From Bdellovibrionales bacterium (GTDB lineage Bacteria; Bdellovibrionota; Bdellovibrionia; Bdellovibrionales; UBA1609): 64,000 nt of DNA. Positions within the stretch are counted from its first letter, which is position 1. The number at the start of each line of letters is the position of its first letter. The notes beneath the pieces are model-generated. The model saw only the letters and a list, made by a program, of their open reading frames with translations. It did not search any database and was not told the DNA's origin. The translations under genes were made by a program, and so were the position numbers. The DNA lies in assembly GCA_965200875.1 (NCBI GenBank), contig OZ241456.1:1-64000 (forward strand). The letters are read 5' to 3'. Shown piece after piece: positions 21,412 through 29,561 of the stretch.

Positions 21412-21540
21412 CTTAATCCCCTTATTTCATATTCAAAGATATCGAAATTTTAAAAAAAACCGGATTTTATCTGAATTTAGGGCTAAAGCCTCAATACCAA
21501 AAAAATTAAATGATTGATAATCAAATGCCGTACTGATTAT

Positions 21541-24500
21541 ATGGCATCTCAAATACTAACAGAGCAAATTAAAATACTTCAAAGTAGACCTGGGCATGAA
21601 AAGGTCAAGCATATTTTATGTAATATTCTAAAAGAACAACTTGAAGCTAAAGATGATGAAATCACTTTGGAAGAAAGACTCTTATGTAGAGGTCGTATTG
21701 ATGCCCTATGGGGTCGTACCATTTTTGAAGTAAAAAGAGACTTAAGAAGAGAACAACGAGATACAGAACATCAAATTAAACAATACATTCAGTCCAAGGA
21801 AAAAGAAACAAACACAAAATATGTGGGAATCACGACTGATGGAAAAGAATATACCGCCTATTGCCTTCTTTATAATGAATTAAAAGAAATAAATAAATTT
21901 TCTATAAATAAAGACAAACCTTCTGATTTTATACAATGGCTGGAAAGTGTAATTCTTATTAAAGAACAGTTACAGGCAACACCTGAAATTATTTGCAAGG
22001 AGATAGGGCAGGGCAGTCCACTCTGCAAAAACTCACTTCTTCAAATAAATATTTTATGGAATCAGGCAAAAAATAAACCAGACATAAGACTAAAATACAA
22101 TTTATGGAAAAAATCTGTTGATATTGTATACGGAAAAGATGGCTCTGATGAATCTTTATTTATTGAACATACTTATTTGACTATTATATCTAAAGCTATA
22201 GCCCATATTGCTTTTTTTGAAGAATCACCTTTGGGAAATGCACTATTGAATGGAAAAAAATTTGAGGATTCCAATGTTTCTGGAGTCATTGAGGATGATT
22301 TTTTTAGCTGGATAACTTATTGCAATAAAGGGAATGAGCTAGTTCAGAAAATTGCAAGCCATATAAAACGATTTAATTTTTCCACTATTGAAGCAGATAT
22401 TCTAAAAGGCTTGTATGAAGGATTGATACGTCAGGAGCAAAGACATAAAATCGGAGAGTACTATACTCCTGATTGGCTGGCTGAAAGAATCTGTAAAGAA
22501 GTCATAAAAAAACCGCTTGAACAAAGAGTAATTGATCCTGCCTCAGGATCCGGTACTTTTTTGTTTCATGCGATAAGACTACTTATCTCAAAGGCTAAAA
22601 CAGAAAAAATAAATACTAAAGAAACAATTAAACTGGTATCTGAGAAAATAGCCGGAATCGATATTCATCCCGTTGCTGTTATTTTTTCAAGGATCACTTA
22701 TTTATTGGCACTGCTAAGTAAAATAAAAGAAATAGAAACAAACCGACCAGATAAAATTACTATTCCTGTATATTTAGGGGATTCCCTGCAATGGAGCAAA
22801 GATGAAATACTTGGAAAGTATGAATTAAAGATACAAGTTCCTGAAGATAAACAAACAAACGCAAGAAGAAGAGAATTGATTTTTCCACAGTCAATATGTG
22901 AAAAATCTGACAAATTTGATACAATATTGTATAAAATGATTGAGCTGGCCGGGAAATACAAAGAAAAATCCATTTTCTCAGCTTGGATAGAAAACGAGGG
23001 AGTGGATGACAATGAACATAAAAGGCTTTCAGAAACTTATGAAAATTTATTGAAACTTCAACAAGAAAACAGAAATCATATATGGGGTTATGTGGCCCGA
23101 AATCTCACCCGGCCGATATGGCTTTCCTCTGAAAGACAAAAAGCAGATGTGGTAATCGGAAACCCTCCGTGGCTGAGATTTAACGCTATGAACCAAGATA
23201 TGCAACAAAAATTTAAAAGTGAATGTAGATCCACTTTATTATGGGAAACAGGAAACACTACAAAGTTTCAAACCAGCCAAGATATTTCCACCTATTTTTT
23301 TATTATGTCTGCTTACCTATATATGAGAAAAAAAGGAACTTTAGCTTTTGTTATGCCATACGGAGTAATGAATGGAGAGCATCATTTTAATTTTAGAGCC
23401 GGACGATTTGAAATTTCCAGAAGTGAAATAAACCTAAAATTTAAAACCGCTTGGGTTTTTGATTCCAGAGTAAAAAATCTTTTTAAAGTACCTTCCTGTG
23501 TTTTGTTTTCAAAGAGACGAAAACAAAATGAAGAACCATTACCAAAAAATATAATATCCTTTAAAGGAAAATTACCTGTGAAAAATTGCAATTTAGAAGA
23601 AGCGAAAAAACACTTATCATCTCAAAGGGCAATATGGCCTCAAGATGATTTTGAAAATCGTTCTTACTATTTTGATAAATTCAAACAAGGTGCTTCTTTA
23701 GTTCCCAGAAGATTTTGTTTTGTTGAGAAAATACAAAGAGGACGACTTGGAAGTTCAAGCACAACACCTTTAGTGAAAAGTGTTGTTTCAAATTTGGATA
23801 AAGCACCTTGGAAAGATATTAACCCACTGGAATTAAAAATTGAATCTCAGTTTTTAAAACCAGTTTACACAGGAAAGTCCATTGCCCCATTTAGAATACT
23901 TAATCACAACACAGCTATTATTCCTTGGGATAATGAAAAAGGCGTGCTGGATTCCTCAATGGCAGAAAGAAGTGGCTATACAAATTTAAGCAATTATCTC
24001 GAAAAAGTTGAAAAGCTATGGAGCGACAATAGCAATGGAAGTATGATTTTTAAACGAAGAATAAACTACAATGCAACTTTAGAAAATCAATTTCCTATAT
24101 CAAAACTCAAAGTGGTTTATACAGCTTCCGGGACAAATGTAGCATCTGTGTTATTGGAAGATTCTACAGGAATAATTGATACATCTTTGTATTATACAAC
24201 AGTAAATAACAAGAATGAAGGAATATATCTGGAAGGTATTTTAAACAGTGATTTCCTTATAGAAAAAATCAGAAACTTACAAGCTCAAGGACAATGGGGG
24301 GCAAGACACATATCCAGACACTTATTAAAACCACCCATTCCAAAATACAACCCACAAGACCCATTACACCAAGATATTGTAAGCCAAACCCAAGAAATCA
24401 AAATCATTGCTCAAAAAGTAAAATTAGATCTTTCATGTTCTTTTATAAAAACACGTAGGCAAATAAAACAGAAAATAAAAAATACTGGAACAGTTTGGAA

Positions 24501-24561
24501 ACATTTGAATCAGAATGTAGAAACTTTGTTAAACAACCAACCTTTTAAAAAGACTTCTTAA
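21541..24561 (+). CDS. Type IIG/IIL restriction-modification fusion (endonuclease-N6 MTase-TRD)
   Basis: PD-(D/E)xK-like RIDALWGRTIFEVK, then GEYYTPDW, DPASGSGTF and GNPPW; ~1000 aa; ATG at 21541. Confidence 0.85.
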   Translation: MASQILTEQIKILQSRPGHEKVKHILCNILKEQLEAKDDEITLEERLLCRGRIDALWGRTIFEVKRDLRREQRDTEHQIKQYIQSKEKETNTKYVGITTDGKEYTAYCLLYNELKEINKFSINKDKPSDFIQWLESVILIKEQLQATPEIICKEIGQGSPLCKNSLLQINILWNQAKNKPDIRLKYNLWKKSVDIVYGKDGSDESLFIEHTYLTIISKAIAHIAFFEESPLGNALLNGKKFEDSNVSGVIEDDFFSWITYCNKGNELVQKIASHIKRFNFSTIEADILKGLYEGLIRQEQRHKIGEYYTPDWLAERICKEVIKKPLEQRVIDPASGSGTFLFHAIRLLISKAKTEKINTKETIKLVSEKIAGIDIHPVAVIFSRITYLLALLSKIKEIETNRPDKITIPVYLGDSLQWSKDEILGKYELKIQVPEDKQTNARRRELIFPQSICEKSDKFDTILYKMIELAGKYKEKSIFSAWIENEGVDDNEHKRLSETYENLLKLQQENRNHIWGYVARNLTRPIWLSSERQKADVVIGNPPWLRFNAMNQDMQQKFKSECRSTLLWETGNTTKFQTSQDISTYFFIMSAYLYMRKKGTLAFVMPYGVMNGEHHFNFRAGRFEISRSEINLKFKTAWVFDSRVKNLFKVPSCVLFSKRRKQNEEPLPKNIISFKGKLPVKNCNLEEAKKHLSSQRAIWPQDDFENRSYYFDKFKQGASLVPRRFCFVEKIQRGRLGSSSTTPLVKSVVSNLDKAPWKDINPLELKIESQFLKPVYTGKSIAPFRILNHNTAIIPWDNEKGVLDSSMAERSGYTNLSNYLEKVEKLWSDNSNGSMIFKRRINYNATLENQFPISKLKVVYTASGTNVASVLLEDSTGIIDTSLYYTTVNNKNEGIYLEGILNSDFLIEKIRNLQAQGQWGARHISRHLLKPPIPKYNPQDPLHQDIVSQTQEIKIIAQKVKLDLSCSFIKTRRQIKQKIKNTGTVWKHLNQNVETLLNNQPFKKTS

Positions 24562-24617
24562 TCTCCATAAAATGAATAAAAAATAATATTCTATTTTGTG
24601 GCCTGTGAAAAACTTGT

Positions 24618-24649
24618 TAACACACTGTTATCACTTGATTGTTTTATAA
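24618..24649 (+). repeat. 32-bp direct repeat, left copy
   Basis: TAACACACTGTTATCACTTGATTGTTTTATAA, 29/32 identical to 29530-29561. Confidence 0.85.
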
Positions 24650-25253: not shown

Positions 25254-27422
25254 TTAATCACAGCGAATATTAGTATTATATATGTAACTATTACCTTGCT
25301 GAGAGCATTCAGCTGTTACCTCACAATAAGCTTTACGGCTTCTTATCCAGCGTTTTGGTGTTACTCCTTGAGGACAAAGTCTTCTGTCAAAATATGCCGC
25401 ACAGTTGGCGTCTTGGTTGTTATTGGTGTTTGTATATGTACAACAATACCCGGTGCTAAGTAGATTTTCAGGAGGGCAACAGTGGCCACTGTTACCTAGT
25501 ACTGCCCCAGAAGGGCAGCATCCTCTAAATCCCCTTTGACTGCGTACTCCATATTCTCCATCGGGGCAACATTTATTAACGGACCGTTGATAATGTGTAT
25601 TGATTGGGCAACATTTCCCATTTGAATTGTGCCAACCATTTTGGCAACAAAGTCCTTGTGAATTGTGATAGCCATCTCGGCAACAAATTCCATTTGCATA
25701 GTGCTTGCCTTTCGGGCAACATCTCCCATTTGAATTATGATAGTTATTCGGGCAACAAATCCCATTTGAATTATATCTCCCATGCGAGCAACATTTTCCA
25801 TTTGAATTGTGGTAGCCATTCCGGCAACATTTCCTATTTGAATTGTGATAGCCATTCCGGCAACAAATCCCATTTGATTGATGATGACCATAAGGACATG
25901 GCCCGTCCAAACATGTCCACCCATCAGTAGGAGTATAATGTATCTCACAATAAGCTTTACGATCCCTCATCCACCATTTTGGAGCTATGCCTGGAGGACA
26001 ACGGGAGGCTTGTGGACCTCTAGTATTGTCACTTCTATATGTGCAACAGTATCCATTGCTAAGTAGATTTTCAGGAGGGCAACAGTGGCCACTGCTAGAG
26101 CGTCTTCCACCAAGTGGGCAACACCCTAAACTCCCATGTTGACTGCGTATTGCAGATTCTCCTGTTGGGCAACAAAGTCCTTGTGAATTGTGCCAACCAT
26201 TTTTGCAACATTTTCCATTTGAATTGTGGTAGCCATCTCGGCAACAAAGTCCTTGTGAATTGTGCCAACTCTGCCAGCAACAAATTCCATTTGAATTATA
26301 TCTTCTTGGATCCCACGAGCAACAAATTCCATTTGAATTATAGTCGTTTATATTGCAACAAATCCCATTTGAATTTCGCCAACCACTTTTGCAACAAATT
26401 CCCCTTGAATTATATTTATTAGGGGGGCATTTACATCTTTTAGATATTGGATCAAATCTTAATCCTGTTCGACTTGTATCACATGAAATACAATTCCCAT
26501 CAGCGTTTTTATTATATCCTGCTAGACAAACACATTGATTTTCTATTTTTTCTTGATTAACAGGGCATACTGCTTGGCATTTTCCTTTTATGAATACTGG
26601 TTTATTTCTATCTTTGCATTCACACTGCTTATTTTCAGTATTATAAGTGCTTCCACCTGTGCATAGAATCTGACACTCAACTGTCCCGTCTTCTTGTCTT
26701 ACAGGATATTGTCCAGGTATGTTGCATGCTTTTGTTAGTATTATATTATCAGGGATTATCTCTTCATTATCGTCTTTTAAAAAACCGGACAATGTGTGTA
26801 CATGTTGTGGAGACATATCCAGATTCACTGTTTGAAAAAAAGAGGTGGGGATAGGAGTACAAGAATTTGTACTGGTAAGATACATTGTATTTTGGGGGCA
26901 ATATATAGGTGGTTTTGTAGTATCAAAAACATTACAATTTTCTGTGGTACAACTATTTATATTATAAGTTATATTGCATGTAATGTAATAACATCCTTTT
27001 TTATCACCACTTGCTTTGCATTCCTTGCCTTTCCTTGTCTTTTGTTCTCCTGCTAATAAAGGCTTACTGTAATATACATAAAACTTTCGATGATCTTCTG
27101 TACCTGTAAGAGCCATATCCACAATATGTATATTCCCTTCATTAAAAGGTTTATCCATATTGATTTCAACGCCATTTGATTTTATCTTTGTAACAGGAAG
27201 TTTTGACGGTTGCAGGTTCTCCCAGCAATTTTGTGATAAAATATTTGTTATTGTTTGTGTTAAGACTTTTTCTGAAAAATTTGTACTTTTAACCTTTGCT
27301 ATATTTATTGACTGTGTACTGTGTTTTAAAGAACCTATGGTAATAACAAGGCTACCCAAGGTAAAAGCCAGCGTTCCTATAAGCCCACCTCCTGTAAAAC
27401 CTTTATTACCTTTTATTCTCAT
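25254..27422 (-). CDS. PilX-like minor pilin with large Cys-rich repeat domain (putative pilus-tip adhesin)
   Basis: MRIKGNKG|FTGGGLIGTLAFTLGSLVI prepilin-like N-terminus without Glu5; EGF-like Cys spacing; 22 CC doublets. Confidence 0.7.
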   Translation of the reverse strand: MRIKGNKGFTGGGLIGTLAFTLGSLVITIGSLKHSTQSINIAKVKSTNFSEKVLTQTITNILSQNCWENLQPSKLPVTKIKSNGVEINMDKPFNEGNIHIVDMALTGTEDHRKFYVYYSKPLLAGEQKTRKGKECKASGDKKGCYYITCNITYNINSCTTENCNVFDTTKPPIYCPQNTMYLTSTNSCTPIPTSFFQTVNLDMSPQHVHTLSGFLKDDNEEIIPDNIILTKACNIPGQYPVRQEDGTVECQILCTGGSTYNTENKQCECKDRNKPVFIKGKCQAVCPVNQEKIENQCVCLAGYNKNADGNCISCDTSRTGLRFDPISKRCKCPPNKYNSRGICCKSGWRNSNGICCNINDYNSNGICCSWDPRRYNSNGICCWQSWHNSQGLCCRDGYHNSNGKCCKNGWHNSQGLCCPTGESAIRSQHGSLGCCPLGGRRSSSGHCCPPENLLSNGYCCTYRSDNTRGPQASRCPPGIAPKWWMRDRKAYCEIHYTPTDGWTCLDGPCPYGHHQSNGICCRNGYHNSNRKCCRNGYHNSNGKCCSHGRYNSNGICCPNNYHNSNGRCCPKGKHYANGICCRDGYHNSQGLCCQNGWHNSNGKCCPINTHYQRSVNKCCPDGEYGVRSQRGFRGCCPSGAVLGNSGHCCPPENLLSTGYCCTYTNTNNNQDANCAAYFDRRLCPQGVTPKRWIRSRKAYCEVTAECSQQGNSYIYNTNIRCD
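25430..26430 (-). repeat. Coding 36-bp (12-aa) tandem repeat CCxxGxHNSNGx arranged in two ~600-bp super-repeats
   Basis: Repeated CAACA...CCATTTGAATT units; exact 38-bp duplication at 25454-25491 and 26057-26094. Confidence 0.9.
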
Positions 27423-27430
27423 ACTTGTCC

Positions 27431-28744
27431 TTAATCAATGTCTCCTTCTTCACATGGGTGATTGAAGGTAGATTCACTCACCGGTCTTTCATCTCCTTCT
27501 ATGTGCCACTCACCACCCGGGTGTGTACGCCGAACATTAGCGCATCTTGTTCTATTTAAGTGTCCATACATATACTGATCGGTAGGATCAGTTTGTCCAG
27601 TGTCTGTATACACTTGAGTTTCTGGGAAACCATATTTACATGTACATTCCCCGGCTACAAAACATTTTCCAAATCCACAAAAACACCCTCCATCTGGGTT
27701 TTTCGCCCTTCCATGTTTACATATACATTCTCCATCATTCCGTTGCTCCATCCCAGATATACACTCACATGATCCAGTAACGGGGTTTATTTTCTTATTT
27801 GTTGAACACTTACAATTTCCGTTACTGTCTAGTATTTGACTATCATCAGGACAACTACAAGCTAAATCATTTTGTTTGTATACTTGACCACCATGACAGA
27901 TTTTTTTACATACATTCCTCTTATTTCCGTTAACATCTTCTTCTAACACAATATGTTCTCCTTCTGGACATGCAAAAATTGTACAATCCACCCTTGGCTT
28001 CAGTGTTCCGTCAGCTTTCATACCAAAACCAGTAGCCACCTGCCCTTCAGGACACTTTATATCAAAACATATAGCTTTTGGTGGGTCTCCTGGGTTGTCC
28101 CCTGCTTTTGTTCCTATTAAAATCCCATCATCATCACATCCGTCTATACAATCTTTTTCTTCTCTCCCTGTAGTCCCCACTAAAATTTTACCCGGATCAC
28201 AAGAGACATCTAAAAAATTACCCGCAGTATCAGGAATACTACAGTTTACGGGGTTACATGTTTGGGCGGTTGATATGTTACAGGAAATTCGAAAACATCC
28301 GCTTAAGTTATTTGCTGTACAAGTATTACCTCCTTTTGTTTTTTGCTGTTCTCTCATTCCTTGAGCACTATATTTGTAATATAAATTAAAAATTTTAGTT
28401 TCTGGTGGTGAGGTGGGAGTGTATAAAGTCTTCTCCACCACAGTAATAGTATTGAAGGCATCATCATCAAAAGTAGGTAACACAGCCCTTTGTAATGTAC
28501 CACCATCAGCAGGAGGAGGTAAATTTGTAAGGTCGTTTGTTACTAAATCGGTGCAATAGTTATTGTTATTTAAAATTGTATAGACTTGATTTTTTAGTTT
28601 CAATGTATCTTGATGAGTATTTAAAACTTGTGTGTTTAAAGATACTTGTTGAGAAGTGTTTATAAGACCGAAAACTGCAACACTTCCAACAGTGAGCATA
28701 ATTAAAAGCTCAACAAGACTTCCGCCCTTATTGTTTATTTTCAT
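27431..28744 (-). CDS. Prepilin-type N-terminal cleavage domain protein, Cys-rich (minor pilin)
   Basis: MKINNKG|GSLVELLIMLTVGSVAVFGL with Glu5; ATG 2 nt after the upstream stop; Cys-rich C-terminal half. Confidence 0.8.
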   Translation of the reverse strand: MKINNKGGSLVELLIMLTVGSVAVFGLINTSQQVSLNTQVLNTHQDTLKLKNQVYTILNNNNYCTDLVTNDLTNLPPPADGGTLQRAVLPTFDDDAFNTITVVEKTLYTPTSPPETKIFNLYYKYSAQGMREQQKTKGGNTCTANNLSGCFRISCNISTAQTCNPVNCSIPDTAGNFLDVSCDPGKILVGTTGREEKDCIDGCDDDGILIGTKAGDNPGDPPKAICFDIKCPEGQVATGFGMKADGTLKPRVDCTIFACPEGEHIVLEEDVNGNKRNVCKKICHGGQVYKQNDLACSCPDDSQILDSNGNCKCSTNKKINPVTGSCECISGMEQRNDGECICKHGRAKNPDGGCFCGFGKCFVAGECTCKYGFPETQVYTDTGQTDPTDQYMYGHLNRTRCANVRRTHPGGEWHIEGDERPVSESTFNHPCEEGDID

Positions 28745-28746
28745 AT

Positions 28747-29417
28747 TTATTTCCAACAATCATTATCTTGTTTAAATCCCTCTGTATTCTCTAAATTATG
28801 TAAACCTCCACCCCAGCCTTTACTCGCTTTGCAAGTAGTAGGGCCTAAAACTAAATAAGAAGTTCTATCATCATGACACCATATTTGATATTCCCCAGTT
28901 TTATATGAGACACGGGATAATACCTGAAGTTTTTTTCCTGAAACTTCTTTCTGTATACTTAAACAATGATATTGATGCCTTGAGGCGTTATTATTTTTAG
29001 TAAAAAGAATACAATCTGCTCCAGCAGGGCAGGTAAAATCCAGCTTTTTTTTTAAATCATCTTTTAGAGGTCTTTGTGGTGTGTCTTTTGCCTCGCAAGG
29101 AGTGTCTGGTGTCGCACTCGGATCGGGTAGTCCATTAGAACCCAATAGAGTAATCGCCCACCCACCATTTACGGAAATACAGTTTCTTACAGCATTAGCA
29201 AAAAGGACGCCGTGGAGCTTTAGGTCTTTTTTATTTACAGCAAGTGTATAACCTTTATAGGAGACATAAGCGACACCGCTTATTATAGAAAGAATGCCTA
29301 TTGTTAACAGAATCTCAACAAGCGTATAGCCTGTTGCATTTGAGAATATTCGAATCAGCTTATAACGCAGAGCATGAGGGGGGGGGTAGAGAGGGTTTTT
29401 CTTTGGATTTCTTTCAC
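28747..29417 (-). CDS. Type IV pilin-like protein frameshifted at a poly-C9 tract (putative phase-variable, OFF state)
   Basis: The frame of ORF 28747..29145 extends upstream through NATG|YTLVEILLTIGILSIISGVAY but has no start codon. GTG at 29417 with AAGGA SD is one base out of frame across G9 at 29378-29386. Confidence 0.8.
29378..29386 (-). repeat. Homopolymer C9 (G9 on +) slippage tract in prepilin leader
   Basis: Nine consecutive G. Confidence 0.9.
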
Positions 29418-29529
29418 ATTTACTTCCTTATTAAGATTTATGGTCTTTAAAATTAATCGGCCTTTATCGTAAAACACTTTATTTTTTTAATATTCCAATA
29501 CTCTATACAAGTTGGCACGGAACAAGTGA

Positions 29530-29561
29530 TAACATACTGTGATCACTTGATTTTTTTATAA
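29530..29561 (+). repeat. 32-bp direct repeat, right copy, overlapping palindrome CAAGTGAT-N11-ATCACTTG
   Basis: TAACATACTGTGATCACTTGATTTTTTTATAA; palindrome spans 29523-29549. Confidence 0.85.

Follow-up and report, generated by a model that had tools for sequence, protein, structure and literature searches.

A Probable Slipped-Strand Translational Switch in the Leader of a Type IV Pilin-Like Gene of a Bdellovibrionales Bacterium

Organization of the Pilin Locus

The window, i.e., the whole stretch of DNA analyzed here (64,000 nucleotides of contig OZ241456.1 of a Bdellovibrionales bacterium, genome G000, 1.87 Mb), carries on its minus strand a cluster of three prepilin-like genes, the first of which is read out of frame at a run of nine C in its leader. 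The features of the cluster, in window coordinates, are as follows.

29527..29561, no strand assigned: dispersed AT-rich intergenic repeat, upstream of the promoter (53 blastn hits genome-wide)
29454..29481, minus: predicted sigma-28 (FliA)-like promoter TAAAG-N16-CCGATT (pattern match)
29425..29429, minus: Shine-Dalgarno-like AAGGA, 7 nt 5' of the GTG, present also in three paralogs
29414..29419, minus: ATG-TGA start-stop, overlapping the GTG (sequence)
29329..29417, minus: leader-coding region from the GTG to the cleavage Gly, 30 aa at C10
29378..29386, minus: poly-C tract, assembled as C9 (off); in frame at 7, 10, and 13
29362..29373, minus: 12-nt motif of the GCAC[CT]GCGT[CT]AT type with one change, directly 3' of the tract
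29355..29357, minus: TGA closing the 20-aa off-state peptide (sequence)
28747..29328, minus: mature type IV pilin-like protein, 193 aa, 8 Cys, beginning YTLVEILL, intact (profile and fold match)
27431..28744, minus: gene 2, prepilin-like N-terminus MKINNKG/GSLVEL, Cys-rich C-terminal part, intact
25254..27422, minus: gene 3, 722 aa, prepilin-like N-terminus without Glu5, 74 Cys, intact

On the minus strand, AAGGA (29429–29425), GTG (29417–29415), and nine C (29386–29378) follow each other exactly where the sequence-only reading had placed the start of a frameshifted pilin gene; the ATG-TGA start-stop that overlaps the GTG may lower initiation. This start-stop, the sigma-28-like promoter, and six paralogous tracts elsewhere in the genome go beyond that reading. 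Scripted variation of the tract shows that translation from GTG 29417 yields (M)KEIQRKTLSTPPLMLCVIS and a stop at C9 (20 aa, TGA 29357–29355), a 223-aa prepilin with a 30-aa leader at C10, and 222 aa at C7; the 223 aa given earlier for both in-frame lengths are thus right for C10 and one residue too many for C7. C8 and C11 readings end after 18–19 aa, and the other out-of-frame lengths between 5 and 14 after 17–21 aa. The pilin frame has 32 open codons 5' of the cleavage Gly, and the earlier claim that none of them is ATG, GTG, or TTG is correct; CTG, ATT, and ATA codons occur in this frame 3' of the tract. A motif of this type follows the tract at 27 sites in G000 and two relatives (G005 and G009), and is read in differing frames among paralogs.

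The hidden product matches Pfam N_methyl (PF07963, 22.7 bits vs. a cut-off of 21.2), the only Pfam family in the 223-aa prepilin, and TIGR02532 (19.4 vs. 16.3). Class III signal peptides have a hydrophilic leader ending in Gly and a hydrophobic tract with Glu5, and are cleaved on the cytoplasmic side after the Gly (PMC4471445, partial text); the product has this arrangement, G/YTLVEILLTIGILSIISGVAY, with Gly at −1, the hydrophobic tract, and Glu5. Its 30-aa leader is longer than the range of 6–26 aa given for type IV pilins, although the same review states that traditional length parameters no longer hold (PMC4471445, partial text). A low-confidence structure model (pLDDT 59.8) has a helix at 19–68 and then strands, which would correspond to the long N-terminal helix and antiparallel sheet head of a type IV pilin. 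With this low-confidence model, the top 11 rows of VIA-align are all pilins, the best being Thermus thermophilus PilA4 (Z 8.2, rmsd 3.4, 119 aligned), and Foldseek against PDB returns zero matches at E<=0.001.

Gene 2 has 30 Cys and an ATG 2 nt past the pilin stop; gene 3 contains 36-nt repeats and has its own Shine-Dalgarno sequence. A Pfam search with gene 2 gives no family, and the additional Cys-rich repeat modules of genes 2 and 3 have no Pfam match. The AT-rich repeat has a second copy at 24615–24649, so that the cluster is flanked on both sides, and is not specific to it. Convergent with the cluster, a plus-strand gene at 21514–24561 encodes a protein of 1015 aa that matches N6 methyltransferase and Eco57I and, weakly, TaqI_C, and is likely a restriction-modification fusion. 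An Rfam search of the window finds three tRNAs and nothing else.

Predicted Promoter

The FliA attack-phase consensus of Bdellovibrio bacteriovorus is TTAAG-N16-CCGATA, and transcripts of FliA-dependent promoters start about 7 nt downstream (PMC3627812, partial text). The boxes TAAAG-N16-CCGATT of the predicted promoter fit this pattern, with the same 16-nt spacing. G000 encodes FliA, and the strict sigma-28 pattern precedes six of seven tract loci among 22 sites genome-wide. Given FliA and boxes at 29481–29455, the tract falls within both the transcript and the coding region as predicted. A role of the tract as a promoter spacer is therefore rejected, as it sits downstream of both the −10 box and the start codon. 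A sigma-70-like site was sought near the C9 tract, and none was found. As a separate observation, ATG is frequently found 7–8 nt past the sigma-28 −10 box (L020, L021, L023, L025, L035, and C1:1407524 of G000), which suggests leaderless transcripts in this lineage.

Long Tracts and Paralogous Cassettes in the Genome

Open reading frames of at least 120 aa span 86% of C1, and G/C runs of nine or more are strongly over-represented on it (23 observed vs. about 1.1 expected by extrapolation of the run-length spectrum), with only three of the 23 in ORF interiors. Seven of the 23 are poly-C tracts within 330 nt 5' of a prepilin motif, vs. about 0.05 expected. The C9 tract is beyond chance, and over-long in the sense used for SSR phase variation. 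For A/T runs of eight or more, 661 lie in intact ORF interiors vs. 16 frameshift-like cases, seven of which are one repeated element (C1:513736, 1263108, 1321484, 1324231, 1638868, 1782618, and 1796804), where +1 at A8 joins 98 and about 298 codons; we take it to resemble an insertion sequence with a programmed frameshift.

A cassette of sigma-28-like promoter, start codon, poly-C tract, and leader heads seven prepilin loci in G000, with tract lengths of C9 (window), C10, C9, C9, C11, C10, and C10. In four close paralogs the distance from tract to Gly is 46, 205, 208, and 208 nt, and all are in frame at 7/10/13; the leaders hence differ by whole codons. The long leaders comprise 83–84 aa. Of the codons that differ between two of them, 3 are synonymous and 9 non-synonymous, which fits a frame that is maintained and a sequence that is free to vary. 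An ATG lies five codons before the Gly in three long-leader copies, and in all of them its Shine-Dalgarno sequence or AUG is paired in predicted hairpins; on these predicted hairpins the tract dependence of the long-leader paralogs would rest. At C1:1407444 the upstream frame stops two codons before the pilin ATG, likely a translational-coupling variant. Two near-identical single-gene copies, at C1:868293 and 1447917, differ by 2 nt 3' of the tract. In each, an ATG and a GTG start overlap in separate frames, which could give three expression states; the copy at C1:868293 is additionally broken by a second frameshift about 690 nt downstream. A short-leader pilin with a strong Shine-Dalgarno sequence at C1:169432 has no tract and is a candidate for the major pilin.

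As for the pilus machinery, G000 encodes an A24 peptidase domain, two PilT-family ATPases over the cut-off, and four secretin matches; a search of the genome with the PF06750 profile found no match. Rho, EF-P, MutS, and MutL are encoded as well.

Other long tracts in G000 have different contexts. A second family of C9–C11 runs is flanked by TTGA(C/T)T and TAGTCT boxes (C1:851146, 861313, 906735, 912071, 1181582, and 1252027), with spacers of 15–17 nt depending on tract length and genes for exported-looking proteins downstream; this looks like promoter-spacer switching. Runs of C15 (C1:805727–805741) and C16 (806889–806904) split two adjacent divergent ORFs, and removal of one base from the former joins 183 and 339 codons. 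In the window, a further candidate switch is a G10 run at 1433–1442, read as C10 on the minus strand; it lies close to the beginning of a minus-strand ORF, behind a possible lipoprotein-like N-terminus.

Tract-Gated Prepilin Loci in Relatives

The tract-plus-prepilin pattern matches 14 of 109 family genomes. On inspection, G009 and G065, the latter of another genus, were kept, G006 and G010 were rejected, and G014 is unclear; single hits in G005, G064, G077, G093, G105, G113, G120, and G123 lay outside this inspection, and G003 and G005 were added via regions upstream of pilin hits. The resulting table contains 32 tract-prepilin loci in five genomes (seven in G000, nine in G009, nine in G005, five in G003, and two in G065), i.e., 25 cassette loci in four relatives, three of which are labeled Bdellovibrionales. 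Loci L065, L099, and L116, with tract and motif, were left out of the 32; the first, a G009 copy, is a broken gene.

At all 32 loci the tract is poly-C on the coding strand, from C9 to C31, although long tracts in relatives may be mis-called; conserved tracts of variable length in homologs, which the sequence-only reading had proposed as a check, are thus present at the same position. Leaders in frame range from 27 to 247 aa, and at 15 of the 32 loci there is no ATG, GTG, or TTG within 25 codons of the Gly. As the table admits at most one stop per locus, its stop count of 1 vs. 181 is partly built in. An unfiltered reverse test starts from 95 prepilin motifs: C8 or longer occurs within 900 nt upstream of 33, and G8 or longer upstream of one. 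The frame is open from tract to Gly in 24 of the 33; the other nine comprise four second genes of gated operons, two cases of a stop directly followed by an internal ATG, and three incidental runs. As assembled, and with the best start taken at each locus, nine of the 32 loci are on, 14 need +1, and nine need −1, with the proviso that long tracts may be mis-called and that at a few loci two start frames are candidates. Since both needs are common, there is no single direction of error. The loci are related by descent, and the counts are not independent trials.

The on-state leaders in G003 are 156–247 aa long, stop-free, strongly basic (+28 to +44), and contain in-frame repeats; a search of them for hydrophobic segments and for internal starts linked to a Shine-Dalgarno sequence found neither. 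In one G003 copy the C run is interrupted and in frame, and the gene looks locked on. A palindrome ATTCCC-N7..9-GGGAAT is inserted in frame in giant leaders of G003 (L075, L077, L087, and L090) and G005 (L084); presumably it is akin to the dRS3/REP-like repeats of Neisseria.

The tract-gated system is patchy within the genus. Long C runs are scarce in several members (0–5 per strand in six genomes), and the single loci examined in G002, G008, G010, and G011 contain no tract-gated prepilin. G010 has 262 C/G runs of nine or more, vs. 1–43 in other genus members; its two pattern hits are not prepilin loci on inspection. The G006 hit (L062, on C2) is not a prepilin locus either: the 12.8-kb contig consists of five tandem 2.37-kb units with TTAGGG-like repeats, has no long ORF, and is probably not bacterial DNA. 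L021, in which C8 is in frame, is a protease-like gene and not a gated prepilin.

Two Tract Lengths in Sequencing Data

Sequencing run X1 has a contig of 110 bp specific to the locus, at depth 17, which breaks off at the ninth G and forks into two 45-bp contigs, one with C9 at depth 10 and one with C10, i.e., one additional G, at depth 7; neither has any other letter change. The contigs belong to the window locus, as base 29371 differs in six of six paralogs. To either side of the tract the 45-bp contigs extend for fewer than 31 letters, below the bridging rule, and the two-allele reading rests on simulation: at k=31, the graph built from the assembly by itself contains one unitig of 125 bp here, and addition of C10 gives exactly 110+45+45. 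The mixture of 9 and 10 that had been named as support for phase variation is therefore seen, and both C9 and C10 exist in the sequenced population. The X1 data are of low depth, comprise eight listed contigs out of 20 aligned, and may come from the assembly's own sample. Among the matches listed there is no C8 or C11 branch at the window locus. The flanking contigs (2570, 358, 110, and 2830 bp) have depths of 16.6–18.8 and no other letters where aligned; the unbroken A9 run in the 358-bp contig was not used as a control, since contig building may remove simple bubbles. The paralog at C1:1303886 behaves similarly: simulation with C10 and C12, but no C11, reproduces the X1 contigs of 52, 45, and 46 bp.

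Run X4 has a 60-nt C9 piece at depth 3, too short for bridging; in run X2 the pilin body is uncovered; and sponge metagenome run X3 contains cassette pieces with several differing letters. A metagenome scan with alignment A2 gives no relatives among 128 pattern matches, and none of 14 motif matches has a prepilin downstream.

Phase variation at SSR loci is characterized by variation at a single locus, an over-long tract, reversibility in the absence of selection, and a rate above about 1 in 100,000 (PMC11868660, partial text). The sequenced snapshot is one population, and the two alleles at this single locus translate to 20 and 223 aa; the X1 depths of 10 and 7 are an allele frequency and not a switching rate.

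Interpretation

Mononucleotide tracts change length by strand slippage. We consider a slipped-strand translational phase switch at the pilin locus to be the probable explanation of these data, with slippage as the likely cause of the two tract lengths. Replication slippage would flip the first gene of the three-gene prepilin cluster between off (C9) and on (C10). In the on state, translation from GTG 29417 would produce a prepilin with a 30-aa cytoplasmic leader, which prepilin peptidase is predicted to remove. With the predicted cleavage after the Gly, any in-frame tract length gives the same mature pilin; the length and sequence of the leader would be of little consequence provided that the frame is kept, making it a disposable site for a mutable tract. 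In the off state (C9, C8, or C11), ribosomes would halt within seven codons of the tract, which may also lower gene 2, through its coupled start, and possibly gene 3, through Rho polarity. Such polarity on genes 2 and 3 is plausible, as the gene 2 start is 2 nt past the pilin stop and Rho is present.

A rival possibility, unlikely in our estimate, is that two near-identical strains coexist, fixed at C9 and C10, with an ordinary low mutation rate of the tract. The data come from a community sample, flanking SNPs can be hidden by contig building, and X1 and the assembly do differ at one paralog (57-bp contigs vs. a simulated 47 bp); however, the flanking contigs show one set of letters where aligned, a second locus is likewise split in X1, and long tracts occupy the same position in 32 loci.

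It is quite improbable that the pilin is made at any tract length, by a non-canonical start, a second promoter at the motif, or ribosomal slippage, with the tract tuning its level. The in-frame CTG, ATT, and ATA codons would allow it, the post-tract motif is kept across three genomes in different frames, and other G000 tracts sit between −35-like and −10-like boxes. Yet none of these codons is preceded by a Shine-Dalgarno sequence, no sigma-70-like site was found near the tract, phase is kept across paralogs of differing leader length, and the 156–247-codon leaders of G003 are stop-free.

Homopolymers are prone to sequencing error, the platform is unrecorded, and the C11 of the assembly at the paralog is absent among the X1 contigs listed; C9 might thus be a sequencing or consensus error for a true C10. 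We give this very little weight, as C9 is the deeper branch, C8 and C11 branches are absent at the locus among the X1 contigs listed, almost all A/T runs within genes leave them intact, and among relatives the off loci require +1 about as often as −1. Decay of the locus to a pseudogene, for which the small genome of 1.87 Mb and the broken copies C1:868293 and L065 might speak, is scarcely credible with the mature pilin and both downstream genes intact and the in-frame allele accounting for 7 of 17 depth units.

If slippage switches each cassette, independent switching of the seven loci would produce varied combinations of accessory Cys-rich pilus-tip subunits, while the major pilus subunit, whose candidate has no tract, would stay outside the switching. 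The assignment of the gated genes as accessory tip subunits would follow from their likeness to modular pilins. As for the use of poly-C rather than poly-G, our own idea is that exposed C-rich RNA would load Rho and so silence an out-of-frame operon. More tentatively, and as a possibility that we find less convincing than the switch itself, a portable module of sigma-28 promoter, start, tract, and leader may switch 7–10 interchangeable tip operons independently in small-genome Bdellovibrionales, the peptidase may cut leaders of up to about 250 residues, and C-rich RNA may load Rho.

Comparison with Known Systems and Implications

Phase variation has been studied mostly in pathogens; that of pilC in Neisseria gonorrhoeae is reportedly credited to Jonsson and colleagues in 1991. 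In pilC1/pilC2 of this species, poly-G within the part encoding the signal peptide shifts the frame of a pilus adhesin (PMC13017665, partial text). The locus described here is similar in that a homopolymer in a signal-peptide-coding region, between the start and the cleavage Gly, would toggle a pilus-associated gene with more than one paralog. However, PilC is a non-pilin adhesin, gated by poly-G and present in one or two copies, whereas here the homopolymer is poly-C and part of a pilin's class III leader, and about 7–10 multi-gene clusters per genome stand behind a sigma-28-like promoter; the gated product, a 223-aa prepilin, differs from the large non-pilin tip adhesins of the PilC/PilY1 type. 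Frameshift variants of pilE arise by a separate route, antigenic variation (PMC4877100, partial text). Single-locus variation, a mononucleotide tract over chance, and surface-protein genes are shared with SSR contingency loci (PMC11868660, partial text).

The Gly/Glu5 design and the predicted lollipop fold agree with class III signal peptides and their pilins, but the leaders of 30, 83–84, and 156–247 aa compare with 6–26 aa in the described cases. Genes 2 and 3 resemble PilB of Streptococcus sanguinis (PMC8179133, partial text) in that a large additional module is attached to a pilin-like N-terminus, as in the architecture of tip adhesins; unlike the modules of such modular minor pilins, theirs are Cys-rich repeats without Pfam match, and the partial text of PMC8179133 mentions no phase variation. 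Our searches of mainly openly accessible literature turned up neither a description of phase variation in Bdellovibrionota nor one of a homopolymer switch located in a class III leader. Three features set the system apart from the described cases: its position within such a leader, how many multi-gene clusters are gated, and the very long leaders.

To gene callers, about two thirds of the gated genes appear as broken or truncated ORFs, and the pilin repertoires of these genomes are hence under-annotated. Leaders of 80–250 residues would show the tolerance of prepilin peptidase, which, should the portable-module reading be true, would accept leaders roughly ten times the reported range; 7–10 independent switches would then allow a hundred or more tip combinations per lineage. 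If true, a multi-locus pilus-tip switch would offer a handle on variation in prey or host attachment, or on the avoidance of pilus-binding phages, in these relatives of a bacterial predator.
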